64,000 bases of DNA from Methanobacteriota archaeon (GTDB taxonomy: Archaea; Thermoplasmatota; Poseidoniia; Poseidoniales; Poseidoniaceae): assembly GCA_011526375.1 (NCBI GenBank), contig WTIT01000089.1, positions 3,337-67,336 on the forward strand. Direction: 5' to 3'. Both the position numbers and the translations under genes were made by a program. The first letter of the stretch is position 1. Every line of letters starts with the position of its first letter. Positions 2,499-63,684 of the stretch are shown here, piece after piece. The notes beneath the pieces are model-generated. The model ran no database searches. It saw nothing but the letters and a program-made list of their open reading frames with translations, and was not told the origin of the DNA.

Positions 2499-2588
2499 GA
2501 CAATTTTGAGATTTACCTTACTGAATGTTTATCATCACTCTACCGGTGGGTTGGATTGACCCCTTTGGGGTCAAACGGGGGAAGACGA

Positions 2589-2858
2589 ATGAATAACTCA
2601 ATACTACCAGATGTAACAGTTGGTTCAGGACAACCGTCCATGGGTCGAGTAGCACTCACACTAATGTTTGTTGGAGTGTTCGGCTTGTTTGCGCTTTTTG
2701 CCAATATTTTCGGCTGGGATTCAATGCCAATCCTTGGCGACGTGGTTCCATTCATCGGCAATCTTGGCGGTAGTGGAATCTGGTATTACTTGGTCGGATT
2801 ATTAATTGGAATTGGTGTCATTGTTGCAACTCTTATCGGCGAGGTAGTTGTCGAATAG
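2589..2858 (+). CDS. Small 2-TM membrane protein (start moved to ATG 2589)
   Basis: ORF track starts at TTG 2556. The ATG at 2589 is preceded by GGGGGAAG. Two hydrophobic helices (ALTLMFVGVFGLFALFANIF; IWYYLVGLLIGIGVIVATLIG). Ends 14 nt before the next gene. Confidence 0.55.
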   Translation: MNNSILPDVTVGSGQPSMGRVALTLMFVGVFGLFALFANIFGWDSMPILGDVVPFIGNLGGSGIWYYLVGLLIGIGVIVATLIGEVVVE

Positions 2859-2860
2859 AC

Positions 2861-2866
2861 GGAGGA
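2861..2866 (+). promoter_or_regulatory. Shine-Dalgarno site (GGAGGA) for the 726-aa membrane protein
   Basis: GGAGGA lies 6 nt upstream of the ATG at 2873. Confidence 0.6.
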
Positions 2867-2872
2867 TTTGTT

Positions 2873-5053
2873 ATGGAACCAGTATTTATTTCAGCAGCAA
2901 TTCTTCTTGCAATTTTGGTTATAGTTTCGTATTATGTCACCAACGGTATTGGAACTATGGGCGCTCCAATGCGCCAGTTCGCATTGTTCCTCATGAATAA
3001 AGCGCCAGTCGGACTTGTCGATCTATTCAAGGATGAGCCTGGTAGTGGTAGTCGAACTTGGATTAAGTACGGAACTGGCTGGTTCTTGTTGGCTGCAATT
3101 TGTGGCTTTATCGGCATTTGGCACAAGTATGACCCAACAGCACTTGATTCACTAGCAAGCATTGGTTGGTCATACGATGATGGCTCAGCATTGTCAGACT
3201 TCACCTCTTCGGTAATGGGAATTGCCTTCACCTATTTGCTAGTTGGAGGCTGTTTAGTTGCTGTATCAAGAGCAGGCAGCAATCGTTTAGCCAGCGAGGC
3301 TAACGCGTCAATGGTTGCAGTGTTATACACTGCTTCAATGGCTTTTAGCCTAATTTTAATCCCGATTATATTCAATTTTGTCGACATCACAGATGAACAA
3401 AATGTTAGAGATTTAATCACTTTGATGACTACCTATGTTGTTTCCAGTCTGTTGTTTGCGGCTCTGTTGATGAATGTTCTAGCAACTTACTCGACTAGGG
3501 GAGAGGGAACTTCCTCAATCACTGCATGGTTTTTGATAATGGCCGTCGTTGCCAAACTGGTTGCAAACATGTATCACCTGATTGGCGAAGCAACCGATAA
3601 CTCCCAAATGGTCTGGCTTTCAGAGCGAGTATTGGATGGCTGGGTACCACTTGCATTGATGTTCGCTCTAGCCTACCACGTTATCCCCCATGCTGCTAAA
3701 GCACCAGTATGGTCTGGCTCTCTTTTGAACGCAAACATGGTACTGCTGTTTGTTACTGTTCCACCGTTCTTCATGACCGAATCAAATGCAGGAGAGTTGT
3801 TACAGAATGTTGGCGCTTTACTGCTAACATTCTCTATGCTACCGTTGTTCGCTGGCTCGATCAACCTACTAGCCACAGCCTCAGCAAATTCCGGCAATGT
3901 TCTCAAAAATCCTGGTGCATTATCTGCAACCCTTGCTATGTTCTTGCTACCAATATTTGCCGTTGGAAGTTACTTCACAGGTATGGATACTTTGACAGGT
4001 ACCGATAAGATGCTGACTATGTCAACCACAATCGATGAAGGATTCATGTACACAGTTGGTGGCTTGATGATGCTTTCCGCAGTATTCTCATCTTATCCGC
4101 TTGCTGCTGGTAGAAAACTAGCTGATAGTTCACGAGGCAATATGGCGACATGGTTCATGATGTTCGGCGGGTTAACCGCAACAATTACCATGTTGATTGG
4201 GGATTTCACAGAAAAAGCTGTCTTGGATTCAGGCGTTGAAGATGTTGTAGCATCCACCTCGGGCTTCTATCTAACCGCTGCCGCAATGTTTTACCTTGTT
4301 GCAATATCAGTGGTAATGGCCACATTAGTGCTAATTAGAACCGGCACCTCTTCACAGAAACTGGAAGAACTTACCACTGGGGAATCAGACGTTGAGACAT
4401 ATACTCTAGTCGATGGAACAACCACGACAATCCAACAATTAATTGGCAGAGGAGTTGGCTTGAACACAACTCTAGTAATTGGCGATACCGTTGATGATGA
4501 GGGCGGCTCCACTGTCATAGCAGTTTCAGCATCGCTTCACAATGATGAGGTCACAGAATTCCCCGAGGAGGAGGAAGTCGATGAGGTTGAAGAGATTAAA
4601 GGGCCTGATAAGCAACTAGTCATGCTAGCAGATTATCTAAACAAAACTGGCCAATCGGTGTTTGAATTTTTCAAATCAATTGACCTAGATGATTCAGGCA
4701 ATATCGATGGATTTGAACTTCAACAAGCGCTAATCAAGAGTGATGTGGGAGAATATCCTCCGTGGGAAGTCGAAGCACTCGTTTCAGCCATAGACCTTGA
4801 CAAAGACGGCAAACTAAATCTTCCAGAACTAAGTATTGCTCTTGCCCAAATCGCCTCAAATTACGGTGCTCCAAAGGCCGATGAACCGACATCTGATGAC
4901 TCAGAAGAGTCGGAAGATGAGGTCGAATCAGAGCACACAGAAGCCTCACTAAGTAAACTCAAGAAAGCAGAATTGATTGCCATTGCTGAAGACATGGGTG
5001 TTGCAACAACTGGAACAAAGAGTGACTTGGTAGCGGCAATATTAGGCGCATGA
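2873..5053 (+). CDS. Polytopic (about 13 TM) membrane protein, heme-copper-oxidase subunit I-like but lacking His ligands, with C-terminal EF-hand pair and SAP/Rho_N-like motif
   Basis: About 13 hydrophobic helices in residues 1-490. AYHVIPHAAKAPVWSG and the downstream helix pattern resemble CcoN/COX1. An acidic linker is followed by two EF-hand loops and a terminal KKAELIAIAEDMGVATTGTKSDLVAAILGA. Confidence 0.6.
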   Translation: MEPVFISAAILLAILVIVSYYVTNGIGTMGAPMRQFALFLMNKAPVGLVDLFKDEPGSGSRTWIKYGTGWFLLAAICGFIGIWHKYDPTALDSLASIGWSYDDGSALSDFTSSVMGIAFTYLLVGGCLVAVSRAGSNRLASEANASMVAVLYTASMAFSLILIPIIFNFVDITDEQNVRDLITLMTTYVVSSLLFAALLMNVLATYSTRGEGTSSITAWFLIMAVVAKLVANMYHLIGEATDNSQMVWLSERVLDGWVPLALMFALAYHVIPHAAKAPVWSGSLLNANMVLLFVTVPPFFMTESNAGELLQNVGALLLTFSMLPLFAGSINLLATASANSGNVLKNPGALSATLAMFLLPIFAVGSYFTGMDTLTGTDKMLTMSTTIDEGFMYTVGGLMMLSAVFSSYPLAAGRKLADSSRGNMATWFMMFGGLTATITMLIGDFTEKAVLDSGVEDVVASTSGFYLTAAAMFYLVAISVVMATLVLIRTGTSSQKLEELTTGESDVETYTLVDGTTTTIQQLIGRGVGLNTTLVIGDTVDDEGGSTVIAVSASLHNDEVTEFPEEEEVDEVEEIKGPDKQLVMLADYLNKTGQSVFEFFKSIDLDDSGNIDGFELQQALIKSDVGEYPPWEVEALVSAIDLDKDGKLNLPELSIALAQIASNYGAPKADEPTSDDSEESEDEVESEHTEASLSKLKKAELIAIAEDMGVATTGTKSDLVAAILGA
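4682..4828 (+). other. EF-hand pair (Ca2+-binding loops DLDDSGNIDGFE and DLDKDGKLNLPE)
   Basis: Both loops fit the 12-residue D-x-D-x-[DS]-G-x-[IL]-x-x-x-E EF-hand consensus. They are flanked by helices and spaced 37 codons apart. Confidence 0.8.
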
Positions 5054-5066
5054 TCGGCGATGCTGT

Positions 5067-6347
5067 ATGAAAATAGGCTTGGTTGGCAAACCCAATGTTG
5101 GTAAGTCAACATTTTTCTCTGCTGCGACGCTAGCAAAAGTGGATATCGCAAACTATCCATTTTGTACCATTGATCCAAATGTAGGAGTTGCTTTCGTTGC
5201 TGCTAGATTACCATGCCCGTGTAAAGAATTACGACAGAAACTGGAATCAGACGGCAGGTTAAGCCCGCCTCTAGACGACGATCCAAGAAAAGGTAGTATC
5301 TGCGAGCCAAGAACAGGTAGTTGTGTAGAATTCAAGCGACTAGTGCCTTGTTATCTTGTGGATGTTGCGGGTCTAGTTCCCGGTGCCAGTGAAGGAAGGG
5401 GTAGAGGAAATGCTTTCCTTGCAGATTTGTCAAATTGTGATGCCTTAATCCAAGTTGTTGATGCAGCAGCATCAACGGACATTGAGGGCAATCCAACCTC
5501 GCCGGCAAAAGAAATTGTCAATGCAGTAAGTTCAATTCAAGCAGAGATCGATTTTCTATCCCTCGAATTAGATAATTGGATTCTTGGCTTACTGGAGGAC
5601 AGTTGGTCGAGAGGAGTTAGAAGAGTACAATCAGAAGGAGAGAAAGGGATTCTAAATTTCCTCCATGATAAATTGACAGGATTGGGTTCATCTATGACTC
5701 TAATCACTAAGGGATTTGAACAATTCAAATCCCAACATAATGATTCAACATCACCATGGGATTGGCAGAGAGATGTGTTACAATTATTAGCGAAAAATCT
5801 TCGTAAGCAATTATTCCCAATACACATCGCAGCAAATAAATCAGATATGGCACTTTCAGGAGTTCTGGGTGAAGTTAACGCTAATGGAATTATCATTCCC
5901 TGCATGGCAGATATGGAACTTGCACTCAGAAGAGCCTCTTCTGCGGGAATGATAGATTATCAGTTAGGCTCAAGCGAGTTTTCAATTTCAGACGAGGCTA
6001 ATCTAAACGAAAAGCAACTTGAAGCCCTCAACAAAATGAAAGAGAAATTGGCTTCAGTAGGCTCAACAGGTGTTGCCGAAATTATCGATAAAGTGCTTTT
6101 TGACCAACTCGAGCATATTGTCGTTTATCCTGTTCAAGATGAAGGGCAATGGACTGATGGCGATGGCAAAGTCTTGCCTGATGCATTTGTCGTACCACAA
6201 GGAATTACCGCCAAACCGCTAGCTTACAAAGTACACAGTGATCTTGGTGATGGTTTCATCAAGGGTGTTGACGGAAGAACTCGTAGAGCAGTTGGTGCTG
6301 ATTATGAGTTAAACAATGGAGATGTACTCAAGATTCATTCAAAGTAG
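5067..6347 (+). CDS. Obg-like GTPase/ATPase of the YchF/OLA1-related archaeal (Ygr210-type) subfamily
   Basis: P-loop GKPNVGKSTFF, DVAGLV (G3), NKSD (G4) and a C-terminal TGS-like beta-grasp region (VYPVQDE...GDVLKIHSK). Cys-rich insert PCPC...CEPRTGSC. Confidence 0.8.
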   Translation: MKIGLVGKPNVGKSTFFSAATLAKVDIANYPFCTIDPNVGVAFVAARLPCPCKELRQKLESDGRLSPPLDDDPRKGSICEPRTGSCVEFKRLVPCYLVDVAGLVPGASEGRGRGNAFLADLSNCDALIQVVDAAASTDIEGNPTSPAKEIVNAVSSIQAEIDFLSLELDNWILGLLEDSWSRGVRRVQSEGEKGILNFLHDKLTGLGSSMTLITKGFEQFKSQHNDSTSPWDWQRDVLQLLAKNLRKQLFPIHIAANKSDMALSGVLGEVNANGIIIPCMADMELALRRASSAGMIDYQLGSSEFSISDEANLNEKQLEALNKMKEKLASVGSTGVAEIIDKVLFDQLEHIVVYPVQDEGQWTDGDGKVLPDAFVVPQGITAKPLAYKVHSDLGDGFIKGVDGRTRRAVGADYELNNGDVLKIHSK

Positions 6348-6734
6348 TCAGTGACCTTTTGGACGTTCATACTCGGGAGTAAGTCTTGCCATATTTCCAG
6401 CAAAATGTGCACTTCTTATGAAGAACCAAGCAGGTGCAAATAGCGTTAATCCGATTAGTAATAGCAGGAAGTATAACCCCCAAGGCTCTACAGAACTGAT
6501 GTACATGCCCCATAGAGTCCACAGTACTGGTATGTACAGGAACATGCTGTACCTTCTAGCAACAAGTGAAAGTCTGGCATTGCGCAATTTTTCACTGTAG
6601 AAGTTTTCAGCTTCTTCCTCGGTTGCTATCTTCATATCAACCGCACATCGAATGCATACCTGTGCGCGAGGCCCGTTACCGTGGATGAATTGGTCTCGAG
6701 AAAAAGTCCCTAGACAGTACCTGCAAGTTGGCAT
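6348..6734 (-). CDS. Zinc-ribbon (CxxC...CxxC) protein with two C-terminal TM helices
   Basis: ORF track start 6821 overlaps the upstream gene. The ATG at 6734 (MPTCRYC) is preceded by GGGGGAG. Motifs CRYC...CIRC, then two hydrophobic helices. Confidence 0.5.
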   Translation of the reverse strand: MPTCRYCLGTFSRDQFIHGNGPRAQVCIRCAVDMKIATEEEAENFYSEKLRNARLSLVARRYSMFLYIPVLWTLWGMYISSVEPWGLYFLLLLIGLTLFAPAWFFIRSAHFAGNMARLTPEYERPKGH

Positions 6735-6771
6735 TCTGCTCCCCCATGTCAACGGAGATGGTCTTGATTCT

Positions 6772-9024
6772 TCAAGCATCCGATTGAAGAGCCAAAAATG
6801 CCGTAATAATTTCAATACCATTTATCGAACCAATAGATTCTGGATGGAATTGAACACCATGTATTGGCTTTGAGCAATGCCTTAATCCCATAATTGACCC
6901 ATACTCATCATAGACGTTAGGTATCAATTCAGTATTACCTTCACCGGTAATTATCAATGAGTTGTATCGAACAAATTGATTTGATTTATTTGAGCTTGCG
7001 AACAGACCTGAACCATCACTCTGACAAGTGACCGGTGCTCCATGTACTGCACCGTTAGGGTCTTTGATCAATCGATAACCACCGACTAAGCCCAATGCTT
7101 GATGTCCTAAACAAACTCCAAGGACAGGTAGGTTTAGCACGCCGTCATTGGCTAATTGAGCGATTTTCATGGTTATTTTCGAATCTTCAGGTTTTCCCGG
7201 GCCGGGCCCCAAAACGATGTGTGAAGGGTGATATTTGTTGAAAACGTCAAGGAGAACACTAGAATCTGCGTAGCCGTCAGATTTGGCGTCTCTGCCATTT
7301 AGCACACAAACATCATGGCCTAATCCGGCAATTACATGAGCGATATTTAGGGTAAAAGAATCTAAATTATCAATAATTATTACATTATTTTCTAATTTTT
7401 CACCTTCCAAATTCAAATCCGCAATCGTGTAAACCTCGCCACAATTGGCGAATTTGAAGGTATTTTCGATTTCTAAGGCCGTCGTTTCTAATCTTCCAGT
7501 ATTGGTTACATCGAAATCAGGTTTTAGCCAACCACAGGCTTTCCTTATCGCTTGAGATTTCCAGACCGATTCTGCAACTTCCATGGTTGCTTCTGACCGA
7601 ATGGTGATGCCGCCACCTGCACCAACAGTTCCATGCCATTGCTTTCCGATCTTTTTTGCCTCCAAAGTACGGATAAGTATGTTCCATGAGCAGTTGTCGC
7701 TGTGAGGCTCGAACCAGCCAATAGAACCGGTCCAGAATGAGCGATTTGAGGTTTCTATTTGGTCAATGGCAGCACAGACCATTGTTCTTGGGCACCCAGT
7801 AATACTGCCACCTGGAAATATAGCACCCAACGCATCGCCACTAGTCTTGTCATCTAATAACACGCCCTCGATATGTGAAACTAGATGATGTACGTTAGCG
7901 TATGATTCGACATCAAATTTAGCAACATTTACACTACCAACTTTACAGATGCTGGACAAGTCATTACGCATCAAATCAACCAGCATTCGGTGTTCTGAAC
8001 GTTCTTTGATATCTGCAATCATCGAAGCAATCATCGCTAAATCTTCTGATTTGTTGGCGCCGCGTGTAACAGTTCCTTTGATTGGTGCGGTAGATAAAAT
8101 TCTATCATTACAACGTAACAGCGTCTCAGGTGAAGATGATACAATTGCTAGACCTAAGTCAACAGCCTCGATGTATGCAGAAAATGGTGCTGGATTGGAT
8201 ATTGACAATCGTTGGAATATTGTTAGAGGGTGTTCAACTAGTTTACCGGACCAGAAACGACCAAAATTTACCTGATAGAACACACCATTGGCGATTGAAT
8301 TCTTGATTTGTTCGATAGCATCGTGATGCTGTTCATCATCAACTGAGGAGATTTCTTGGTGGGTATTCGCTGGTTGCTTTGACAACGTTACAGAAATATC
8401 TTGTTTATCAATTACCTTTTCCACACATTCTGTCCATTGTTCATTGATCCCATAGACAGAGTATACATCATCATCAACAGAGTGTAGAATATAATTTTCA
8501 ACCAGCCACAAAACTGCTAAAATCTCATTTTGCTGAGGTAGTTTCTCCAACGAGATTGGTTGAGTGTATTGAATCATGTCATAGGCGATAGAACCCGCCC
8601 AGAAGGCTCCACGAGGCAGATGACTTTGTGTATCGAGGAATTCAACATTTGGAGTCAATTGTTTTAGTTTGTTCAACAAATCACCTAGCCCCTGTGCCGA
8701 TATAATATTCGAGTGATACCAGCATCCATGTTTCCATTCCTCGATTTCTGCGGTTAGTACAGGTCTCTCATCAAGCAATTCAATTTGGCCCTCCATGGCA
8801 TTATTTCCAATTTCCTTTCTAATATCATTGACCTGCTTAATGACAATTCTAGTATTACTCGGGCCACAAAGAATTGAATTTTGAGCTAAATGGCTGGCTG
8901 GGCCGCCAGATTGAAACAGAACTAAGTCTGGTGAACCATACTTGATTGCACCCATGCCTAACAGGTTGGAATCTATCAGCACTGGCGCTAATGCACTCAC
9001 GCCAGTTATTTCGAGTACTCGCAC
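6772..9024 (-). CDS. pabB: Aminodeoxychorismate (or anthranilate) synthase, fused component I + glutamine amidotransferase (PabB-PabA type)
   Basis: Chorismate-binding domain motifs (PGGSITGCPR, FWTGSIGW, GAGGGIT). C-terminal class-I GATase (LGVCLGHQALG, GVQFHPES). GTG start overlaps the upstream gene by 19 nt. Confidence 0.85.
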   Translation of the reverse strand: MRVLEITGVSALAPVLIDSNLLGMGAIKYGSPDLVLFQSGGPASHLAQNSILCGPSNTRIVIKQVNDIRKEIGNNAMEGQIELLDERPVLTAEIEEWKHGCWYHSNIISAQGLGDLLNKLKQLTPNVEFLDTQSHLPRGAFWAGSIAYDMIQYTQPISLEKLPQQNEILAVLWLVENYILHSVDDDVYSVYGINEQWTECVEKVIDKQDISVTLSKQPANTHQEISSVDDEQHHDAIEQIKNSIANGVFYQVNFGRFWSGKLVEHPLTIFQRLSISNPAPFSAYIEAVDLGLAIVSSSPETLLRCNDRILSTAPIKGTVTRGANKSEDLAMIASMIADIKERSEHRMLVDLMRNDLSSICKVGSVNVAKFDVESYANVHHLVSHIEGVLLDDKTSGDALGAIFPGGSITGCPRTMVCAAIDQIETSNRSFWTGSIGWFEPHSDNCSWNILIRTLEAKKIGKQWHGTVGAGGGITIRSEATMEVAESVWKSQAIRKACGWLKPDFDVTNTGRLETTALEIENTFKFANCGEVYTIADLNLEGEKLENNVIIIDNLDSFTLNIAHVIAGLGHDVCVLNGRDAKSDGYADSSVLLDVFNKYHPSHIVLGPGPGKPEDSKITMKIAQLANDGVLNLPVLGVCLGHQALGLVGGYRLIKDPNGAVHGAPVTCQSDGSGLFASSNKSNQFVRYNSLIITGEGNTELIPNVYDEYGSIMGLRHCSKPIHGVQFHPESIGSINGIEIITAFLALQSDA

Positions 9025-9782: not shown

Positions 9783-12700
9783 TCACAGTAGATCATCCAG
9801 GAATGATGTGTCAATATTCGGTTTTTGAGTTTGCTTTGGTTGATTTAACTCATTTAGTAAGGCATTATTTTGCGGTTGCAAAACTGGTTGCTGAGGTTGA
9901 TACGCCTGTCTTTGATATGGGTCGTTAGCTTCAATTCTTTGAGCAGCAGAATACAGATCATTTTCGACTTGTGGCGTAATTTGTGGCGGAGGTGCAATAG
10001 GAGCCATAGCACCAAATTCAGGAGCATCATCCCATCCCATATTGTCTTGGATGCCCCATGTGGCTTCTTGCAATTCCCAATTCTTATCACGCATTTTCTT
10101 ATTGTTTCTGGTTCTAACTATGCCAATCAGCAATAGCAGAGCCACCAAAAGTAAACCCGCAGCAATCAAATTTGGGGTGGTGAGTAAAGAAGTGAAGTCC
10201 GTATCTTCATTTGATTCTACAGGTTGTTCATTACCCGAACTTTGCTTTGGTAATACTTCGACTGATTCAACGATGTTTCGGGTTGTGTAATCGTCAAATG
10301 GAGATACAGCAACATACCAAGTTGTTTGGTTGTCTAACTGTTCAAATTTGTCACTGGAGATTAAGAAATTGGTTGATGCCAAAACTTCTCCAACCTCAAC
10401 AGCATCAGTAATTGATGTGAATGATTCATCGAGGATGTATATCTTGTAGCCGCGAATTTCACCCGAATTAACTCCGCTCCATGAAACGAGTATTCCGTCA
10501 TCGACCCAATCGGCTGATAAGTCATCAACAGGCGTAATATAGTCGCCAGAATCATCGAATCCATCATCAACCGATTGGCTAGATACCACTGTCAAATCAT
10601 CTAGGTAAGCGTTGCCCGAGGTGTCTCTAACGACCACGGCAGCCCATACCTCTAATCCAGTTACTACAGGCATATCGCCGGCAACAATTTCAATCAACAA
10701 TGGTAACTCAGGATTTCTTTCTAGCGTTGCAATTGGAGTAATCGGACCGCCGCTGCCCGGCGTTACAGTGGTAAACGAGGTTGATGCTGCATATATCTCA
10801 TAACTGCCCACGTCACTAGCGTCGCTTAACTCAAAGTTCAGTAACAATCCTGTACCGTCATCATTTGGACGGTCATAAAGTTCAATTTGTGTAAGTCTTT
10901 CTGGAGGTTCAGTATCTACAATGTTGTTAATCGGTGTGACGCTTGCTTGTGGGAGACTGGTCAAGTGAACATTACCTTTGATGTCATGAACGGTAACGGT
11001 GACGAATAATTCTATGTCAGGTTGGATTAGTTGAGGAGTAGCCATCGTGATGTCCATCATGCCCGTTGGCGGACTGTACAATGCTGTTGAGATAGTCAAT
11101 TCGATTGGGTTTTTATCTTCATCAATCCATTGTTTGTCAATCATCAAACATCCGCATTTGTCAGGGTCATCCCCAAATGCTGCCCATGCCCCGCTTAGGT
11201 CGGTAACCGGTTGATCAGCAACCCAGACGATGTAGTGTGAGAAATCATCAGCATCTGAAATCGTCCATACGACGTCTATTGCTGTTCCATCATCATTTGG
11301 ATGGTCATAAGCATTTACCGAGGCAATTCGATCAGGCGTTCCTCCACTACCTATCGTATTACGTAACGGTGTAGCAGATACTACATCTACATCGATTAAA
11401 TCAACATTCAACCAATCGTCATAGGCAACGACAGCAAGCAGATATGGTTGACCATCTTGTAGTACCAAACCATCGTATTCATCAATGATTGTACTTGTTG
11501 TGCCACAATCATCAATGATTACAGAGCGAGAGAATCCACGTTCTTCGAGTGATTGAATTACGGTTAAATCAGGTTGCCCATCATCCAATTTGACCCAAAC
11601 GGCATAGAATGTACAATCATCAGCAATGCTTTCCTCCCAAGAAATGGTAATTCTTCCTCCATCATCATCAGGCGTATCAATCGCAGTGACATTCTCAAGC
11701 TTAGGAGGCGGAGTCAAGTCGTTTAGACCACCAGTTGGGACTACTGGACCAATTACGATTGGATTTAGGATGTCTTCTTGGTCAGTTAGGTCCACACAAG
11801 TTAGACCAATCCAATATGGTCTACCTGGATTCAATTGGATAATTGTTGTGTTGCCTTCAGTTGGCGGCAGTTCTACTTCAGGAGTTAATCCAAGCACATC
11901 ACTAAATTCACTGGTAAGGGCGTATATTTTGGTACTCTTCAAATCAAGCGCAGTACATCTTGCCCACTCTATTTCCAAATCTCCATCTTGGCCACCATCA
12001 TGCGGTCCTGCATTTGCCCAGATCGGAGATAATGGAACTTCGTTAGTTGGGACTGCTGGCCCTAGTTGAGGAGAGGGCGTTCCCAATCTTCCATCGTCAT
12101 ATTCTACCACTACAATTGCATAATATTCAGTTCCATCAACTAAAGGTTGACCGTTCGCCGTAGTCACTTCATTCTGTAAACGGCTGTGTAGAGAAATTGC
12201 TTTGTCAACAGTCCTGCCTGTTAAATCATCAGCGGAAATCACAGATGTTCCAGAAGCACTGGAGAAAGGCCCTTCACTTACATACACTAGATATCTTGAG
12301 AAATCATCGTCGTGAACTAGAGTCCATGAAGCGGTTAACGCGCCACCACCATCATCTGGCCTGTCAATCAATCCAGTAAGAGTGATTGGAGTTTCTAGTT
12401 TGATGTAATCATAGGTTATTCTTACCTCTAGAGAGCCATTACTTGGCGATCTTAAATTTAGTTGAACATACTTTGTTCCGTTTATTTGTACCGCACTATC
12501 AACGGCTGCTTGAAGTGTGTTAGAGAGTTGAGGGTCATCTGAAAGATTCAGCGTTACTGCATATTTTAGACTGTTAGATTGGGCCCAAGTCGCCGCCCCA
12601 CTCACCGGTGAAGTGAATGCAAGCGGAATGCCTTGGAATGGAATGTTATGTATTCCTGGATTACCTGCATCGGAGTCTAGGATAATTGGGTCAAGGACGG

Positions 12701-15700
12701 TTGCTAATTGAATCTGAACACCGGGATGAGCTAGGTTAGTGATATCTTGATTAAGCAAATTAAAGCCCATGTTTAAGGGATCGGCGCGCCGCAATTCAAA
12801 ACGCTCAAGAGGAGTCCATTGAGGATTATTCATCCAACCAAACAAGCCGTTATTGTCGGTAGTAACCCACAGATAATCATCACTAATTGTCCCACTTGTG
12901 ATGCTGACATCAGGGACAACAAACACCTTAGTTACAGCATGTGATTGGGATGTAGCCTCGGAGATAGTAATTATGTCTCTTCCTATCGCTAGTAATTCAT
13001 TTCCATTGCTGACTAATCTTTCGATTGGCCAACTAGGTACTTGGAAAGCAGCCGCTCCATCTTCAAATTGGCCGTTTATGCCATTCCAATGCGTCATTGG
13101 GCCAACATCAGTTGCAATGTGTAGGCCCCACCAGTCACTGGCAAGCGCTGTTACTGTATTGGAAGGCAATTGGTCGAATCGGTGGGTCTGGGTAATCAGT
13201 CCGGTTGTACCATCGATACTAGTGACGCCAGGTCTTTCACTTCCTGCCCCATCGTGACTAACATGTATTTCTACTCCTCCAACATTGTTTGAGGTACTAA
13301 TTAGTCCCCATGAGGACGTTCCTAACATACCGTTTCCAGTAGTTAGAACATTGACCGAGTTGGTCAAGGTATCCATTTGTGCTAATCCCGAAGGTGTTGC
13401 CACCCATAGATTTGGAGATTCGAACATAACGTCTTGAATAAGGTTCGATGGCAGTCCGTCAGTTGTACTTAGAGGATTTAACCAGTCATTGGTTTGCAGT
13501 GACCATCTTCCAACGCCGCCATTGGTAGCGATGTACACTTCATCAAGACTTACGTCTATGCTATTGACGATGTTTGACGGCAATCCTGCTAGTAACCTTC
13601 CGTTGCCGAAACTATTGGTTTGCGTATCATAGATTTGAACTCCGGCAGACGAGCCAGAATTTCCTTGTAGCCCAATAATCAAGTCACTGCCAACGAGTTT
13701 TAATCCATCCATGTTATTGTGCAGTGCCCCATTAATCGAAGTTAAAGTTGCAGTTATGGTATCGAGCATCATAAGTCCAGAGGGCGAGGTTGAGATGTAT
13801 AAGTCAGTTCCAACTAATTCCAAATCGTTGGCTTGAGAATTAGCCGGCAGGGTCCATCCCTGTTGCCATTCAATGGTGCCGTCAGGCTGTCTCTCACCTT
13901 GGAGAATACCTGCACCAGTAGACTGTCCAAAACCGACATTTTCGCCAATTGTAGTTACCCATAGATGTGTTCCGTTTCCAGTCATTGTTGTCACTTGCCC
14001 GCTTACCAATCCAGGTAAAGTTTGGATGGTATTTTGACCAGTAGAATCGAGGTGGTCGACACGGCTGTAACCGGAAGAACCACCAGCTTGTCCGAGTAAC
14101 CAACCAGTTCCAGACCATTGGAATGATGTAACTGATGAGCCCTGTGCGTTAGAGTTAACTTGGCTAGTAATCGCTCCGCTAGTAGTGATTACTGAATATC
14201 CGCCACCAATTACATTAGACCCTGACTGACCTAAACCGTGGCCAACAATCAGTTTTCCGTTGTCGTAATCAATCGCATCCCACCAAATCCTGTCGCTTGG
14301 TAAATTATGGGTTTGGGTGGAAATATCTGAAAGGAAAATTCCACTGTTCATGTTGTACTTTTTAATCGGTTCTTCATCTTGATAAAAGGTGACGTAAAGA
14401 GTATCAGTAGACTGATCACATGCCACTCCAGACACTCTTCCTTCACCTAGAGAGGCTCTAGTGAGGGTATTGACTACAGTATCGGTGGCGAGGTCAATCT
14501 GCTCGATACCTCCGTTTGAATCATATATTCCAACATTGAGTAATCCTCCACAATAGGCCATAGTAATCGGATAACCTCGCTGGATACCACCTTGGCCACC
14601 TTGGGTGTATACATTCCAGTTAGCACCATCCCAATGGGATATTGCGCCACCCTGGAAGCCTTGGAAACTTTGTCCATCACCGCCACCAAGGACTAGATCA
14701 ACTCCATTTGTCCACAATTCGTAAAACTCGCTTCCCGAATTACCAGGCAGACCATTATTCTCCTGCCATGTAGACAACCATGAATTGGTTGAACGATCGT
14801 ACCTTGCTACACCATCTTCGGTAGCAAACAATACTTCACCGTTATACTCGACGATTTCTCTAATTGGGAAATCTAAACCATCATCACTGTTCCAGGACCC
14901 GACAAAGTTCCCTGAAGCATCATATAGGTCGAGACGTAACTCGCCCCAAGAGACCCACATTTCACCGGAATTTGTTTCATATGCAGTCACTCTGTCAACT
15001 TGGCCGGTAGGTTCAATGTTTGCTCCCCAAGTATCGTTAGCGATATCCCATTGAGCAATGCCACCACGACCATCATAATAATCTGGGAAGCCACCGTTAG
15101 ATGCTACGCTAGCCATGATAACACCATCGATAAGCCCCATGCCCCAAGCAGGGCCGCTGTTGTCATTTAGTTGAATACCAGCATCAATGTTAGATAATTG
15201 ATTGAAATTTACGACATCTATACGATAGACGCTATTGCTGTCGTCTCCCTGATGGTAATACATTACACCATTGTAAATTACCATCTGATATGGATTACCA
15301 TTCCCCAGATAAAGCGCATCGTTCTTCTCAATATCATATACTTCTACTTGATTAACAACATCGATTAGCTGGAAACCGTCCTCACCACCAATCCAAAGTT
15401 GATCTGGATTAACATCTGCTACTAGGCCGGTAACATCTTGATTTCCAGGGTCTAGTATCGCATTACCAGATGGGGAGTTACTGTATTCGGTCCAAGTTGG
15501 TAGCCAAGAGTTAGTTGAGATTTCATACCTTGCTACACCAATACCGTTGAGTCCGATATAGGCAATATCCCCAATCACTTCTACTGGTGCATTGTCGGTA
15601 TCCTCTCCAGCTTCCCACGTGTCTACAACATCGAACGGATTTGTGGTTAAAATACCGACACCGCCATTGGTGCCGCCGTAAATTTTTGATCCGTCCGAGG

Positions 15701-18155
15701 CTATTGTGCGTGTTGACCAATCAGGCATACCGTCGTAGACATTGAGACAATCATCTACTTGTAAGGTACTGATTGGATATTTACACACACCTCGGTCAGT
15801 TCCGACATATAAGTCACTGCCTAGTATTGTAAAGTCGTAGAATGTATCAGGTTGAGTGACCCAGCTGCCCCCCCTTCCTTGTAGGTCAACGGCTTGGGAA
15901 CCATCCCATCTTATTGCACCATCTTCACCCCCAATGTAGAGGTTTGACCCATCTGAAAACAATGCATAGATGATATCCGAGGGCAGGAAATCGAGGCCGG
16001 ATGCTCCACCGCTACCCGGATTATTTCCTCCACCCGAATCGGTGAATGGAAGCAATATTTCACCAGTCGCCAAGTCTTTTCTGACTACGCCATAACCAGG
16101 CAGCCCCATGTGCAATACGCCGTTGAAAACAGCCAATGGAACATCATCTGCATTGTTGATGCCGGTAGAGCCCCATGGAGCGAGGAATGTTTCATTTGTT
16201 AAGTCAAATCGTGCCAGACCAATGTCTAGTGTAGCAATGTATGCAATGTTGCCATAAGTTACCACGTCAGTTAATCCACTGGAAGTCAACTGATTTGATG
16301 AATCATAAATTGCGACCGAGTTTGTTGATGTGTCAATTACTGACATCGCTGAATTAGAATTAATGGTAATCAAATGGTTGTTGTTGATGGCAATTCTTTG
16401 TACGGAATTAGAGGCTAATCCACTTGATGTATCCCAAGTTTGCAGAATTGAGCCATTGGCGCTCATCTTATGAGCACCAGTGTTATCTGAGGCAATGTAG
16501 ATGTAGGTGCCGTCGGTGATTAATTGGTTAACATCATCACCAATTAATTGAGGGGTTAACCACCTCGATTGTTGAATATCAAAACGATTCATAATCCCAT
16601 CAGCAGCAACATATAACACATCATTTAACTCAACTGCATCATCCATTTGTGCCGAGGTTGGACCGCTAGCAAGTAACATATTTCCGAGATAAGGTGGTGT
16701 AGCTGTGGTATCAATAATCGCTAAATCGCCGCCTCCGTCACTTATCAGAACTATCTCACTCGTTGGTGAGCGTATGCCAATATTGGGCCAAACAACCAAC
16801 TTTTCTCCGTTATTCACTAGTCCAAAGTCTTGTAAATCATAGGACTGAAGGAATACACCATTTAGAGTGTTATATGTTTGAACTGTATTACCATTGAGGA
16901 TAACAAGGATATCGTTAGAGACTATCACATCAGAGACACTGTTTGAATTAAGCCAGTTGTTGTTGTTCCAAGTGGATAGCCAAAACCCAGTATTCCAGTC
17001 AAAGCGTGCAAGACCTGCATCTTCAGAGGCAAGTAATAATTGGTTCCCCGAGACATAAAATGAGTTGACAGAGTCGCTGTGAAGATTATTAGCTGTAGTC
17101 CACTTGCTAAGTCGTAGACCGTTGGATAAATCCCACCTCTCAACTCCATCTCCTTCTGAAGAGAAATATAGAATACCATCAACTTCGATAATATCCAATC
17201 CTTGACTTGTTTGAGATTTGAAGAATACATTATTCCAATCAGCGCCATCAAACACCGCAATTCTATCTGATGAAAGAGCATATGGCGTTCCATCACTGGC
17301 GATAATAAACTGGTCGAACTGAACAAACTCAATCGTGTCCAAATCGGCAACAGTTTCTGGTAATGAAGTAATGACGGAAGTATCAATCAAAGATATTGCG
17401 TGAAAATAGTTGTCATCAGTCAGTATGTGTAAGACTAAATTAACAGCATCAATCTCCAGGTCAACGATTGAGTTGGCGTTTTCATATTCAACCATATCAA
17501 TGATTTTTGGATCATTATTGTAATCAATAATTAGCAAAGTATTGCTAATTGCTAGATATAATCGGCCGTCCAACAAGTGAATTACATAATCGGTGATTTC
17601 AAGATCAACCGGTTCAAATGTAACAGCAGGGTCAATCGGTGCTAAAGCCTCGATGATTAGCTCGTTGATTTCTGCACCTGAAGGTAAAGTCCAATACGCC
17701 CCAGAATCACTGTTGGGTGATAATCTTCCAGAGTGAGGATTGGCACTGGTAAAGGAATCACTTGAGCCAAGCATACCAAGTCCAGACCAATCGAACAGAT
17801 TTACTCCAACATCACTTGCAGTAATTACCGGTTCCTCAATCAGCAAATCACTGCTGCCGTTTACTCTTACTTCCATAGTGACATTTGATAGAGAGGCACC
17901 TGGGGCAAACTCAAGCCCCCAGTTCGCATTGGCTTGCAATCCGAGCGCAGGGTCAGCGCCTACAGCATCCAGTCGTATCCAACCTGTATCATTACTGGCT
18001 TGTTTTGGCCATACAGTATCGCTGTCAGTTAAATGAGCAGATACTGGTGATAGAATCATCAGCGGGCTAAGCGATGTAACCACCATTAAAACCGTCAACA
18101 GCAAGGCTTTACGCGCCCTGCTGATGGAAATAACAGGAGTGCTCAACCCGTTCAT
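9783..18155 (-). CDS. Giant (2790 aa) type-I anchored surface protein: signal peptide, long beta-propeller-repeat region, six Fn3-like modules, TM anchor, Q/P-rich cytoplasmic tail
   Basis: Uninterrupted ORF. N-terminal signal-like LLLTVLMVVTSLSPLMILSPVSA. At least 10 copies of G[LVI][AEV]R[FYW][DE] propeller-blade motifs. Repeated D[RTH]P[DN]DDG[GT] modules. C-terminal LIAAGLLLVALLLLIGIV followed by RTRNNKKMRDK. Confidence 0.9.
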   Translation of the reverse strand: MNGLSTPVISISRARKALLLTVLMVVTSLSPLMILSPVSAHLTDSDTVWPKQASNDTGWIRLDAVGADPALGLQANANWGLEFAPGASLSNVTMEVRVNGSSDLLIEEPVITASDVGVNLFDWSGLGMLGSSDSFTSANPHSGRLSPNSDSGAYWTLPSGAEINELIIEALAPIDPAVTFEPVDLEITDYVIHLLDGRLYLAISNTLLIIDYNNDPKIIDMVEYENANSIVDLEIDAVNLVLHILTDDNYFHAISLIDTSVITSLPETVADLDTIEFVQFDQFIIASDGTPYALSSDRIAVFDGADWNNVFFKSQTSQGLDIIEVDGILYFSSEGDGVERWDLSNGLRLSKWTTANNLHSDSVNSFYVSGNQLLLASEDAGLARFDWNTGFWLSTWNNNNWLNSNSVSDVIVSNDILVILNGNTVQTYNTLNGVFLQSYDLQDFGLVNNGEKLVVWPNIGIRSPTSEIVLISDGGGDLAIIDTTATPPYLGNMLLASGPTSAQMDDAVELNDVLYVAADGIMNRFDIQQSRWLTPQLIGDDVNQLITDGTYIYIASDNTGAHKMSANGSILQTWDTSSGLASNSVQRIAINNNHLITINSNSAMSVIDTSTNSVAIYDSSNQLTSSGLTDVVTYGNIAYIATLDIGLARFDLTNETFLAPWGSTGINNADDVPLAVFNGVLHMGLPGYGVVRKDLATGEILLPFTDSGGGNNPGSGGASGLDFLPSDIIYALFSDGSNLYIGGEDGAIRWDGSQAVDLQGRGGSWVTQPDTFYDFTILGSDLYVGTDRGVCKYPISTLQVDDCLNVYDGMPDWSTRTIASDGSKIYGGTNGGVGILTTNPFDVVDTWEAGEDTDNAPVEVIGDIAYIGLNGIGVARYEISTNSWLPTWTEYSNSPSGNAILDPGNQDVTGLVADVNPDQLWIGGEDGFQLIDVVNQVEVYDIEKNDALYLGNGNPYQMVIYNGVMYYHQGDDSNSVYRIDVVNFNQLSNIDAGIQLNDNSGPAWGMGLIDGVIMASVASNGGFPDYYDGRGGIAQWDIANDTWGANIEPTGQVDRVTAYETNSGEMWVSWGELRLDLYDASGNFVGSWNSDDGLDFPIREIVEYNGEVLFATEDGVARYDRSTNSWLSTWQENNGLPGNSGSEFYELWTNGVDLVLGGGDGQSFQGFQGGAISHWDGANWNVYTQGGQGGIQRGYPITMAYCGGLLNVGIYDSNGGIEQIDLATDTVVNTLTRASLGEGRVSGVACDQSTDTLYVTFYQDEEPIKKYNMNSGIFLSDISTQTHNLPSDRIWWDAIDYDNGKLIVGHGLGQSGSNVIGGGYSVITTSGAITSQVNSNAQGSSVTSFQWSGTGWLLGQAGGSSGYSRVDHLDSTGQNTIQTLPGLVSGQVTTMTGNGTHLWVTTIGENVGFGQSTGAGILQGERQPDGTIEWQQGWTLPANSQANDLELVGTDLYISTSPSGLMMLDTITATLTSINGALHNNMDGLKLVGSDLIIGLQGNSGSSAGVQIYDTQTNSFGNGRLLAGLPSNIVNSIDVSLDEVYIATNGGVGRWSLQTNDWLNPLSTTDGLPSNLIQDVMFESPNLWVATPSGLAQMDTLTNSVNVLTTGNGMLGTSSWGLISTSNNVGGVEIHVSHDGAGSERPGVTSIDGTTGLITQTHRFDQLPSNTVTALASDWWGLHIATDVGPMTHWNGINGQFEDGAAAFQVPSWPIERLVSNGNELLAIGRDIITISEATSQSHAVTKVFVVPDVSITSGTISDDYLWVTTDNNGLFGWMNNPQWTPLERFELRRADPLNMGFNLLNQDITNLAHPGVQIQLATVLDPIILDSDAGNPGIHNIPFQGIPLAFTSPVSGAATWAQSNSLKYAVTLNLSDDPQLSNTLQAAVDSAVQINGTKYVQLNLRSPSNGSLEVRITYDYIKLETPITLTGLIDRPDDGGGALTASWTLVHDDDFSRYLVYVSEGPFSSASGTSVISADDLTGRTVDKAISLHSRLQNEVTTANGQPLVDGTEYYAIVVVEYDDGRLGTPSPQLGPAVPTNEVPLSPIWANAGPHDGGQDGDLEIEWARCTALDLKSTKIYALTSEFSDVLGLTPEVELPPTEGNTTIIQLNPGRPYWIGLTCVDLTDQEDILNPIVIGPVVPTGGLNDLTPPPKLENVTAIDTPDDDGGRITISWEESIADDCTFYAVWVKLDDGQPDLTVIQSLEERGFSRSVIIDDCGTTSTIIDEYDGLVLQDGQPYLLAVVAYDDWLNVDLIDVDVVSATPLRNTIGSGGTPDRIASVNAYDHPNDDGTAIDVVWTISDADDFSHYIVWVADQPVTDLSGAWAAFGDDPDKCGCLMIDKQWIDEDKNPIELTISTALYSPPTGMMDITMATPQLIQPDIELFVTVTVHDIKGNVHLTSLPQASVTPINNIVDTEPPERLTQIELYDRPNDDGTGLLLNFELSDASDVGSYEIYAASTSFTTVTPGSGGPITPIATLERNPELPLLIEIVAGDMPVVTGLEVWAAVVVRDTSGNAYLDDLTVVSSQSVDDGFDDSGDYITPVDDLSADWVDDGILVSWSGVNSGEIRGYKIYILDESFTSITDAVEVGEVLASTNFLISSDKFEQLDNQTTWYVAVSPFDDYTTRNIVESVEVLPKQSSGNEQPVESNEDTDFTSLLTTPNLIAAGLLLVALLLLIGIVRTRNNKKMRDKNWELQEATWGIQDNMGWDDAPEFGAMAPIAPPPQITPQVENDLYSAAQRIEANDPYQRQAYQPQQPVLQPQNNALLNELNQPKQTQKPNIDTSFLDDLL
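10170..12380 (-). repeat. Six tandem Fn3-like modules (about 110-150 aa each) in the giant protein
   Basis: Module starts: DRPDDGGGALTASW, GPHDGGQDGDLEIEW, DTPDDDGGRITISW, DHPNDDGTAIDVVW, DRPNDDGTGLLLNF, ADWVDDGILVSW. Each is followed by a Y-x-[IV]-[YW] strand and a YYAIVV/LLAVVA/WAAVVV-type strand. Confidence 0.75.
13000..17600 (-). repeat. Array of about 45-50 aa beta-propeller blade repeats (two-component-regulator-propeller-like)
   Basis: Recurrent blade pattern, e.g. GDGVERWDLSNG, DAGLARFDWNTG, DIGLARFDLTNE, NGIGVARYEISTN, EDGVARYDRSTN, NGGVGRWSLQTN, PSGLAQMDTLTN. Boundaries are approximate. Confidence 0.6.
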
Positions 18156-26726: not shown

Positions 26727-27704
26727 GTGAGTGCGCTAGAGATACCTCATTTTACTCGAATTGTTGCAGATTCAGATTTTGATGGGCTATGTGGCGCAGC
26801 TATTCTCAAAAAATATAATCCTAAAGCGGATATTATGTTCAGTCATGCTGCTCAAATTAGAAATGGAAGCATGGATGATTATATCACCGATGAAACAGTA
26901 ATTGTTGATTTGCCATTCCATCAAAAATGTGGTTGGTACCTTGACCATCATCAAACTAACAGGCCAACAGATAAGCAGTCAATTGCATTTGCACAAAGTG
27001 GCGGCATTATCGATTGGCAACCAACACCATCGGCTGCTAGACTCGCTTATGAGAGAATAAAGCCTTATGTTGATTTAGCCAATTTTGTTGATTTAATGCC
27101 ATTTGTTGATGCTTTGGATTCTGGCGGGATTACGTTACAGGAATTTGTGGAAGATGGCGAATTGATGTGTTTCAGCCGAACTTTGTCACAGACAGAGTCC
27201 GAATATATGCTTGATATTGTCAATATGTTAGCATCGGGGTCAACAATTGATGAAATAATGAGTTTGCCTGAGGTTGTTAAGAGACTCGAATTCCAAAAAG
27301 AAAACCGAAAACAACTCAAGGAGATCGTAATCAACAATACAGAGATAGTTAATCGTTTGGCGATTTGTCATTTAGAAAATACCGGTTATTCTTCTAACGG
27401 GTATCTGGTTACAGCAACTTTCGGAGATTCAGTTGACGCCTGTTGTATATTACACGGATATAGCGATGGCGAAATAAATGATCCTAACAGGCCACCACTA
27501 TCTGCCAGTTTCTATGCTAATTCGTTTATTGAAAATGGTCAAAACAGATATGATTTATCACGCTTAGCAACTCGTTTTGATGAAAGTGGAGGCGGACATA
27601 TGAATGCTTGTGGCTGTCGAATTCAAGAGCCAGGGTTGGAGCATAATTTAGCTGAATGGCTTGACATGTGGAAGCATCGTGACACAGTATTGAAAGTAGA
27701 TTAA
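26727..27704 (+). CDS. DHH-family phosphoesterase (DHH/DHHA1-like)
   Basis: Motifs DSDFDG, VDLP, LDHHQTN and C-terminal GGGHMNACG. GTG start. Confidence 0.65.
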   Translation: MSALEIPHFTRIVADSDFDGLCGAAILKKYNPKADIMFSHAAQIRNGSMDDYITDETVIVDLPFHQKCGWYLDHHQTNRPTDKQSIAFAQSGGIIDWQPTPSAARLAYERIKPYVDLANFVDLMPFVDALDSGGITLQEFVEDGELMCFSRTLSQTESEYMLDIVNMLASGSTIDEIMSLPEVVKRLEFQKENRKQLKEIVINNTEIVNRLAICHLENTGYSSNGYLVTATFGDSVDACCILHGYSDGEINDPNRPPLSASFYANSFIENGQNRYDLSRLATRFDESGGGHMNACGCRIQEPGLEHNLAEWLDMWKHRDTVLKVD

Positions 27705-63615: not shown

Positions 63616-63684
63616 GGGGCCAACCCCGGTGGAAGCAAGCAATGCTCAAAGCATCTGTTCAAGAAGATGACGGCTGATATTGCA

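Follow-up and report, generated by a model that had tools for sequence, protein, structure and literature searches.

The window analysed here is a stretch of 64,000 nucleotides of contig WTIT01000089.1 (positions 3,337 to 67,336 of the forward strand; assembly GCA_011526375.1) from an archaeon of the family Poseidoniaceae. It contains on its forward strand a large gene at positions 2873..5053 that was identified by open reading frame (ORF) calling and encodes a protein of 726 amino acids, flanked by a small gene for a protein with two transmembrane helices and by a GTPase gene. The large protein comprises a membrane domain and a soluble tail. According to hydropathy and the secondary structure of an AlphaFold model, residues 1-492 include 13 transmembrane helices, in agreement with the estimate of about 13 in a first-pass annotation of the DNA, and one short in-plane helix, after which the soluble tail follows. 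The membrane domain (2873..4348) is thus made up of 12 core helices, an extra N-terminal helix and the in-plane helix, and it was assigned by a CcoN profile match, AlphaFold and Foldseek to the fold of haem-copper oxidase subunit I, with the metal ligands all lost. Three features were located in the tail, namely the juxtamembrane motif YxLxxGxTTIRxLLxxGVGLDTxL defined by family-wide conservation (residues 509-536; 4397..4480), an EF-hand pair with canonical loops that is predicted to bind Ca2+ (residues 596-658; 4658..4846) and a C-terminal SAP or helix-extension-helix motif recognised by Pfam (residues 693-724; 4949..5044). The only histidines of the large protein are those at positions 84, 235, 269, 273, 556 and 688, four of which belong to the 492-residue membrane domain, and these scattered residues form no HH or HxH pair, as had been noticed at first sight of the sequence.

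The relationship of the membrane domain to CcoN, the subunit I of cbb3 oxidases, was reached in the sequences of the PDB only with a family profile and not with the single sequence. Scans of the single large protein against Pfam and NCBIfam yielded no oxidase family, with COX1 (PF00115) absent even at E<=1, and a single-sequence phmmer search of the membrane domain against the PDB sequences found nothing. A profile built from 20 representatives of the family matched five distinct cbb3 CcoN chains with E-values of 1.8e-17 to 7.4e-15, the match spanning profile positions 110-443 and CcoN residues 60-409. In the same search NorB of the nitric oxide (NO) reductases remained at a non-significant E = 0.38, and A- or B-family oxidases were not among the matches. 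The first-pass annotation had proposed a resemblance to cbb3 oxidases in helices VI-X, and its three segment pairings were recovered in the HMMER alignment to CcoN of P. stutzeri.

Structural comparison led to the same branch of the superfamily. The AlphaFold2 model of residues 1-538 has a mean predicted local distance difference test (pLDDT) value of 84.2 and a predicted template modelling (pTM) score of 0.86, and each of the 28 Foldseek matches in the PDB with E<=1e-3 was to a subunit I chain from a haem-copper oxidase or an NO reductase. CcoN chains occupied the top seven ranks, with 9g6b_A at E = 2.4e-9, and were followed by NorB, ba3 and aa3/bo3 enzymes. The target-normalised TM-scores of the CcoN superpositions were 0.77 (3mk7_A) to 0.79 (8smr_E), covering 478-498 columns. 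The 12-helix fold and the sequence similarity that define subunit I of the haem-copper oxidoreductase superfamily are accordingly both present, and since profile and structure represent two independent routes, homology to haem-copper oxidase subunit I is established. The large protein is a highly diverged member of this superfamily, nearest to the branch of the C-family (cbb3 CcoN) and NorB.

For comparison of the metal sites, CcoN residues 60-409 were rebuilt from the profile alignment and mapped on the family profile with hmmalign. The aligned CcoN sequence carries histidines at positions 60, 207, 257, 258, 345 and 347, which presumably coordinate haem b, haem b3 and CuB, and its tyrosine at position 251 is presumably the cross-linked one; two further CcoN sequences have the same motifs in helices VI, VII and X. 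None of these residues is retained in the window protein. The low-spin haem pair of helices II and X is replaced by about T111 (for H60, at the alignment edge) and by E389 (for H347, in the variable family column EMMSLHQHARHHTGRILSLL), and the high-spin haem ligand H345 of helix X by I387 in an aliphatic column. At the three CuB/FeB positions, R252 stands for H207 of helix VI (family column RQRITASRKKKHKGKEQQHR), and F299 and F300 stand for the HH pair H257 and H258 of helix VII, in a hydrophobic column of mostly F/L and a column of mostly F/G, respectively. The tyrosine Y251, a feature of the oxygen reductases only, corresponds to F293 in a column of F/Y/M/L/A/V/I. The replacement of the metal-binding histidines that had been proposed from the single sequence therefore holds for all six of them and for the tyrosine in an alignment of orthologues, with one correction of register: the H-V-H motif of helix X falls on I387-D388-E389, two residues before the E-G-F segment with which it had been equated, and there is no conserved histidine either way.

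The column statistics of 28 sequences filtered to <80% identity likewise revealed no conserved His, Cys or Met in the membrane domain (His <=0.50, Cys <=0.14 and internal Met <=0.54). The highest histidine frequencies were 0.50 at position 269, 0.46 at position 84 and 0.36 at position 129, and all three positions lie close to the ends of helices or within the inner half of the membrane, away from the depth of the ligands. With no histidine column above 0.50 and the top three off ligand depth, realignment cannot restore a metal site. That the protein might nevertheless be a normal member of the haem-copper oxidases or NO reductases, with its ligands hidden by misalignment, or might bind haem through unusual ligands, is hardly credible. 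A histidine does occur in the column aligned with H347 in five of 20 representatives, and two family fragments from JGI are named oxidase subunit 1; against this explanation stand the histidine statistics, the mere four histidines in the 492 membrane-domain residues of the window protein and the lack of a neighbouring gene for a cytochrome c or cupredoxin subunit. From the loss of the six histidines and the active-site tyrosine, the large protein is predicted to be unable to hold two haems and CuB/FeB, to reduce O2 or NO or to pump protons by redox chemistry. As the defining ligand features are missing, the family is not placed in any oxidase or NO reductase family and represents a non-redox variant within the known superfamily.

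The topology of CcoN is retained in the family. With the CcoN orientation assumed, the number of Lys and Arg residues per sequence averaged 7.2 in the predicted cytoplasmic loops versus 0.39 in the outer loops, and this bias argues for the same arrangement, in which the N-terminus with the extra helix is predicted to be outside and the tail cytoplasmic. The inner, cytoplasmic halves of the transmembrane helices had a mean conservation of 0.543 with 18 columns of at least 80% identity, compared with 0.451 and nine such columns in the outer halves, the region that would house the cofactors. Motifs in common with CcoN close helices VI, VIII and X on the cytoplasmic side, namely Y-x-V/I-P...P-V-W/Y-S, N-x3-T (helix VIII) and P-x3-G-R. 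In these, S236 and N289 of CcoN correspond to the invariant S281 and N331, and T293 and P367 to the conserved T335 and P409. A further shared residue is W203, the Trp four residues before the CuB histidine position, which corresponds to W248.

Few conserved polar residues remain in the outer half away from helix ends, namely R252, D388 and D444, each at about one quarter of the membrane depth from the outside. R252 occupies the position of the CuB ligand His207 in helix VI, and D388 lies between the two haem-histidine positions of helix X. In the 28 non-redundant sequences, position 252 is R/K/Q/H in 82%, position 388 is D/N/E/R in 93% and D444 is present in 71%. Among 286 sequences, the charged combinations at positions 252 and 388 were R-D (175), H-D (28), K-D (18) and R-E (12), and neutral combinations such as I-N, T-N, S-N and A-S occurred as well. 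Because the two positions co-vary, R252 and D388 are probably paired as buried ions, holding helices VI and X together like a staple where the binuclear centre was once located.

The emptied scaffold could alternatively serve as an ion or proton conduit, in which one of the three pores of subunit I conducts H+ or another cation and the EF-hands gate it in the Poseidoniaceae. This explanation, which we regard as unlikely though deserving attention, would be in line with the position of the CcoN-shared residues S281, N331, T335 and P409 in the cytoplasmic, proton-uptake half and with the fact that, inside the outer half, conserved polar residues are confined to R252, D388 and D444 at the former active site. 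The CcoN residues T215, Y223, S240, H243, Y317, E323 and Y251, which we take to be the proton-channel positions of the C-family, argue in the opposite direction: the family has L for T215, a variable residue for S240, L/M/F for Y317, G for E323 and F for Y251, and polar character is left only at Y223, partly kept as Y268, and in the H243 column with small polar residues. As these positions are hydrophobic or variable, the ancestral proton path seems not to have been retained. A retained proton channel was considered and downgraded, since the invariant S281 aligns with S236 and not with S240. Moreover, a conserved ionisable residue is absent from the middle of the membrane, and the charge-neutral covariation of R252 and D388 is more readily explained by a structural staple than by a site of conduction. 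The Poseidoniales are reported to lack Mrp antiporter families (Meheust et al., PMC9258230), a point in favour of the conduit.

The tail begins with the juxtamembrane motif, in which G527 and T532 never vary and G515, R521 and D531 hardly do. It is predicted to form a cytoplasmic strand-helix-strand unit, modelled with pLDDT values of about 57-66 only, and it gave no significant match in Pfam or the PDB, the best being a UBX domain at E = 0.08. The EF-hand pair that the first-pass annotation had recognised by its two textbook loops was detected by Pfam EF-hand_7 in residues 596-653 (32.5 bits, cut-off 30), with EF-hand_1, EF-hand_5 and EF-hand_6 also above their cut-offs. Both 12-residue loops, DLDDSGNIDGFE (604-615) and DLDKDGKLNLPE (641-652), are canonical, with oxygen ligands at positions 1, 3, 5, 9 and 12, and D604, E615, D641, D645 and E652 are invariant in ten aligned members with a tail. 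The C-terminal helix pair had been described as SAP/Rho_N-like, of which the SAP assignment stands (residues 693-724; 25.9 bits, cut-off 23.9) and Rho_N remained below its cut-off with 17.5 bits. The sequence conforms to the 35-residue helix-extension-helix pattern L..L.K..L...G....G.K..L of SAP/HeH motifs, and the full-length model places the two helices at residues 698-708 and 716-725 with pLDDT values of 82-84. In this model, the EF-hand pair reached pLDDT values of 53-74 and the regions 499-507, 538-576 and 665-686 fell below 50, and the pTM score was 0.67. The weakly predicted linkers and the drop of the pTM score point to a flexible tail, which the model depicts as an acidic string carrying two small domains like beads, without confident docking.

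The tail is not common to the whole family. It is missing with its EF-hand and SAP parts in six divergent representatives, and two others, one of them from a Thalassarchaeaceae cluster, have the SAP motif without EF-hands; where named, these organisms are Thalassarchaeaceae, Poseidoniales, Thermoplasmatota or Euryarchaeota archaea. Accordingly, the putative Ca2+ sensing is an accessory, clade-specific addition in one part of the family, and of the initially proposed coupling of an oxidase scaffold to Ca2+ sensing the EF-hand pair was verified, although it is not a core feature of the family. One clade, represented by a protein of 857 amino acids whose cluster includes MAK77662.1, contains an insertion of about 140 K/E/A-rich residues, seemingly a coiled coil, between the EF-hand pair and the SAP motif, which indicates that the tail is modular and fast-evolving. 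Two further genes of the window touch on the same domains. A protein of the Na+/Ca2+ exchanger family (Na_Ca_ex, E = 9e-40) is encoded at 44325-45485 on the forward strand; the cell should thus be able to keep its cytoplasmic Ca2+ low, which bears on cytoplasmic EF-hands. The tRNA pseudouridine synthase Pus10, encoded at 61888-63642 on the reverse strand, carries an inserted SAP domain (residues 434-466, E = 4e-9) that follows the portion matched in its catalytic C-terminal domain. In this lineage, SAP motifs thus seem to have been added to unrelated cytoplasmic proteins, including an RNA enzyme.

The closest homologues of the large protein belong to Candidatus Poseidoniales, the marine group II (MGII) archaea, and the family was found in both Poseidoniales families and in every Poseidoniales clade sampled. 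A phmmer search with the membrane domain against 1.84 billion representatives yielded 107 clusters at 50% identity, nearly all of which are full or partial copies of the family, down to 21-25% identity, and there are at least 833 clusters at 90% identity, more than 800 of which contain intact copies. The ratio of nonsynonymous to synonymous substitution rates (dN/dS) relative to homologues was about 0.02-0.05 for the membrane domain and 0.05-0.09 for the tail; as dS is saturated for most pairs, these values are a rough indication of purifying selection only. The low ratios together with the intact copies in many clusters nevertheless indicate by sequence that the large gene is functional and under strong purifying selection, with no decay. 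In the source annotation the members are mostly called 'hypothetical protein', and the two short JGI fragments of divergent members are named 'heme/copper-type cytochrome/quinol oxidase subunit 1'.

The gene directly upstream of the large gene (2589..2858, forward strand, ATG at 2589) encodes the small protein of 89 amino acids with two transmembrane helices. As had been described in the first-pass annotation, it is a separate gene with its own Shine-Dalgarno sequence that stops 14 nucleotides before the ATG of the large gene (2873). A GGAGG is located within the gap. Its constant co-occurrence with the large gene was evident from all 90 loci inspected, in each of which it adjoins the large gene upstream; this set combines 80 genome loci, retrieved with a 10-sequence alignment, biased to Poseidoniaceae and searched by tblastn for the small gene, with ten loci of divergent members. 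The identity of the small protein across the 80 genome loci ranged from 51 to 100%, and in the ten divergent loci the two genes are separated by 4-14 nucleotides or overlap by 4 nucleotides. Its dN/dS values of 0.01-0.03 have to be read with a saturated dS. Conserved features are LPDVTVG..EP before the first helix, GWD..P..G..VP in the outer loop and SGIWYY at the start of the second helix, of which EP, P..G..VP and S-G/S-I-W are common to all clades. The protein has no significant sequence match in Pfam or the PDB (best PDB E-value 0.95), and the window copy contains no Cys, no CxxCH and no His. As an idea only, it may be a relic of the two transmembrane helices of subunit II.

The 90-nucleotide gap in front of the small gene (2499-2588) contains two candidate regulatory elements. 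The TATA-like box TTTATCA (2529..2535, forward strand), located about 55 nucleotides upstream of the small gene, is part of the motif GTGAATGTTTATCA, which is conserved before the small gene in the Poseidoniaceae loci inspected and occurs as the variant CCAAYGCTTAAGG in four of five inspected loci of divergent tail-less members; this conservation suggests that it may act as a promoter. Between the box and the start codon lies the perfect palindrome GACCCC-TTT-GGGGTC (2558..2572, forward strand), which has a single match in the 64-kb window, compared with 0.03 expected by chance. The palindrome GACCCC-NNN-GGGGTC is present exactly once and at the same place in 48 of the 90 loci with an invariant stem and a variable loop, and one other locus has the similar GGACCCCC-TTT-GGGGGTCC further upstream. 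Positioned about where transcription should start, it could be a 5' stem-loop of the mRNA or an operator; as the stem never varies, roles in RNA and DNA are inseparable.

Downstream of the large gene, a YchF-related (YGR210-like) GTPase with a TGS domain is encoded at 5067..6347 on the forward strand (NCBIfam NF007171, 431 bits, cut-off 387). The GTPase gene starts 13 nucleotides past the stop codon of the large gene and directly follows it on the same strand in 81 of the 83 loci that could be assessed, with gaps of mostly 13-28 nucleotides. This placement holds in divergent clades too, one clade having an inserted gene, and the GTPase had been left unmentioned in the earlier description of the locus although its position is about as conserved as that of the small gene. 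On account of the promoter-like box, the palindrome and the close gene spacing, the small gene, the large gene and the GTPase gene probably constitute one transcription unit.

RaSEA, the archaeosine radical-SAM protein, is encoded upstream in 82 of the 83 loci, and a gene for archaetidylserine decarboxylase belongs to the same conserved neighbourhood. The latter would suit the explanation that the large protein is a new kind of membrane enzyme or transporter, acting for example on a lipid or lipid-linked substrate by means of the polar cluster on its cytoplasmic surface, as would the near-invariance of polar or charged residues on this one face (K43, D50, R133, E142, N201, T205, S281, N331, T335 and R414). 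We regard such an activity as quite improbable, since, apart from the oxidase fold, Pfam, NCBIfam and the PDB contain no family of enzymes or transporters to which the protein is similar and since S281, N331, T335 and P409 of the cluster are inherited from CcoN, where they are non-catalytic.

The genes adjoining the large gene offer no redox partner of the kinds CcoO, CcoP, NorC or cupredoxin subunit II, the neighbours being the small membrane protein, RaSEA and the GTPase, and oxidase, cytochrome c or cupredoxin genes were found neither among the scanned ORFs of the window nor in the gene tables of the look-up loci. These data bear on the alternative that the large protein is a pseudo-subunit regulating or assembling the real A-type cytochrome c oxidase of the cell, which appears very unlikely. 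Pseudoenzymes commonly act on their active relatives, which would favour this role. So would the reported respiration of MGII archaea through low-affinity (A-type) cytochrome c oxidases, and sometimes cytochrome bd, in a passage that makes no mention of cbb3 enzymes (Tully 2019, PMC6336850). In contrast, neither the window nor any of the 90 loci has an oxidase gene next to the large gene, the nearest relatives of the protein are the C-family and NO reductases rather than the A-family oxidase of the cell, and there are no conserved His, Cys or Met residues to hand over haem or copper.

Further observations concern the remaining genes of the window. An ORF of 157 codons at 6348-6821 on the reverse strand, convergent to the GTPase gene, specifies two zinc-ribbon-like CxxC pairs followed by two hydrophobic helices. 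The ORF at 9783-18155 on the reverse strand presumably specifies a giant surface protein, as its 2790 amino acids start with a signal-like segment and include long regions rich in repeats, a single C-terminal transmembrane helix and a tail rich in Q and P. In a protein of 1199 amino acids (50001-53600, forward strand), a haem peroxidase domain of the animal type (E = 7e-126) occurs together with FG-GAP repeats and an ASPIC/UnbV domain, which is an unusual architecture for an archaeon. The large ORFs at 26727-27704, 28303-31695 and 41026-44274 had no match in Pfam.

Among known systems, CcoN (3mk7, 9g6b, 6xkw and 8smr) is the closest to the Poseidoniales family, with which it shares the 12-helix fold, the topology, a significant profile similarity and the motifs of helices VI, VIII and X, at a sequence identity of only 12-15%. 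The Poseidoniales family differs in the absence of the six histidines and the tyrosine, and hence of haem b, haem b3 and CuB, in its extra N-terminal helix, in-plane helix and cytoplasmic tail and in the mostly hydrophobic residues at the presumed channel positions. Whereas CcoN works with the cytochrome c subunits CcoO and CcoP, the partner of the family is a cofactor-free protein with two transmembrane helices. To our knowledge the C-family is essentially bacterial, and the Poseidoniales family is archaeal. NorB of cNOR and qNOR (3o0r, 4xyd and 3ayf), from the same branch as CcoN, ranked second in the structural comparison (E = 7e-6 to 3e-5) and is likewise devoid of the cross-linked tyrosine, but it keeps the six histidines, adds Glu ligands for FeB and was not significantly matched by the profile.

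An analogy, although with membrane parts that are not homologous, is provided by membrane proteins with HeH/LEM/SAP motifs such as the eukaryotic inner-nuclear-membrane tethers, in which a polytopic anchor and a flexible linker precede a terminal helix-extension-helix that binds nucleic acids; for the SAP motif of the large protein this binding is putative. The gNOR and other recently described families (Murali et al. 2024, PMC11214002) are divergent, genome-mined members of the same superfamily with altered active sites. The active-site histidines are completely conserved in all families of the superfamily except gNOR, the most deviant one, in which a single His is changed to Asp (PMC11214002); in the Poseidoniales family all of them are gone and the protein is predicted not to be a redox enzyme. 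The halobacterial fam02696 (Meheust et al. 2022, PMC9258230), compared here by its description only, is an unannotated archaeal family with distant similarity to subunit I in comparisons of hidden Markov models. It differs in that its genes are often located beside cbb3- or NorB-type genes, and it therefore probably belongs to a respiratory complex. The same study lists Poseidoniales-specific families with calcium-binding domains without further description. Our literature searches for ligand-less or inactive homologues and for this family in Poseidoniales found no description, consistent with the earlier statement that a catalytically dead oxidase scaffold with Ca2+ sensing is not a described system.

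The interpretation to which we give about an even chance is that the redox-dead oxidase scaffold serves as a platform anchored in the membrane, from which it positions or regulates partners in the cytoplasm, and that it responds to Ca2+ in the Poseidoniaceae. The large protein would form a cofactor-free two-subunit membrane complex with the small protein and would be co-transcribed with the YchF-related GTPase. Its 12-helix bundle would be held together without cofactors, with the R252-D388 ion pair at the former binuclear centre. The protein would work through its cytoplasmic face, which comprises the in-plane helix, the KAPxGxxDLF loop, R133/E142, N201/T205, W280/S281, N331/T335, P409/G413 and the TTIR...GVGLDT motif, and this face may act as a docking or regulatory platform. 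With its EF-hand/SAP tail, the platform of the Poseidoniaceae would respond to cytoplasmic Ca2+ and would be able to keep a nucleic acid or a protein at the membrane as its partner.

Several points weigh against this interpretation. The absence of the tail from several clades rules out that the core role of the family lies in Ca2+ or SAP functions. The synteny with the GTPase and RaSEA genes could represent inherited gene order rather than function. The covariation behind the ion pair depends on few independent changes, and its exceptions include E-E in one clade and Q-R in another. The presumed numbering of ligand and channel residues, after Buschmann et al. (2010), is backed here only by the His and Tyr residues found at those positions in three CcoN sequences.

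A bolder and more doubtful version, which we put forward tentatively, regards the proteins as the first pseudo-enzyme family of the superfamily: an ancient C-family/NOR-like subunit I stripped of its cofactors, with a buried ion pair in place of the binuclear centre and accompanied by a dedicated subunit with two transmembrane helices, that could serve as a signalling or tethering hub at the cytoplasmic face with a co-expressed GTPase. In the Poseidoniaceae the wiring to Ca2+ through the EF-hands and to nucleic acids through the SAP motif would make it a prokaryotic Ca2+-responsive tether.

The six histidines have been treated as the signature of the superfamily in every described family, the most deviant of which changes one (PMC11214002). 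Retention of the fold without any of the ligands demonstrates that neither haem nor copper is needed for the 12-helix scaffold to fold and to be selected for, and the family thereby offers a natural apo-like reference for the stabilisation of this fold. It also adds a non-respiratory branch for reconstructing the origin of O2 and NO reduction. In practical terms, fragments named as oxidases may inflate the counts of respiratory oxidase genes in marine metagenomes. The uncultured Poseidoniales are more abundant in the plankton of the surface ocean than any other archaea, and the family is present in all clades sampled. The linkage to a GTPase and the presence of EF-hands in one family provide an entry to archaeal Ca2+ signalling, which is almost unexplored, and in these organisms an old respiratory scaffold now serves a different purpose.

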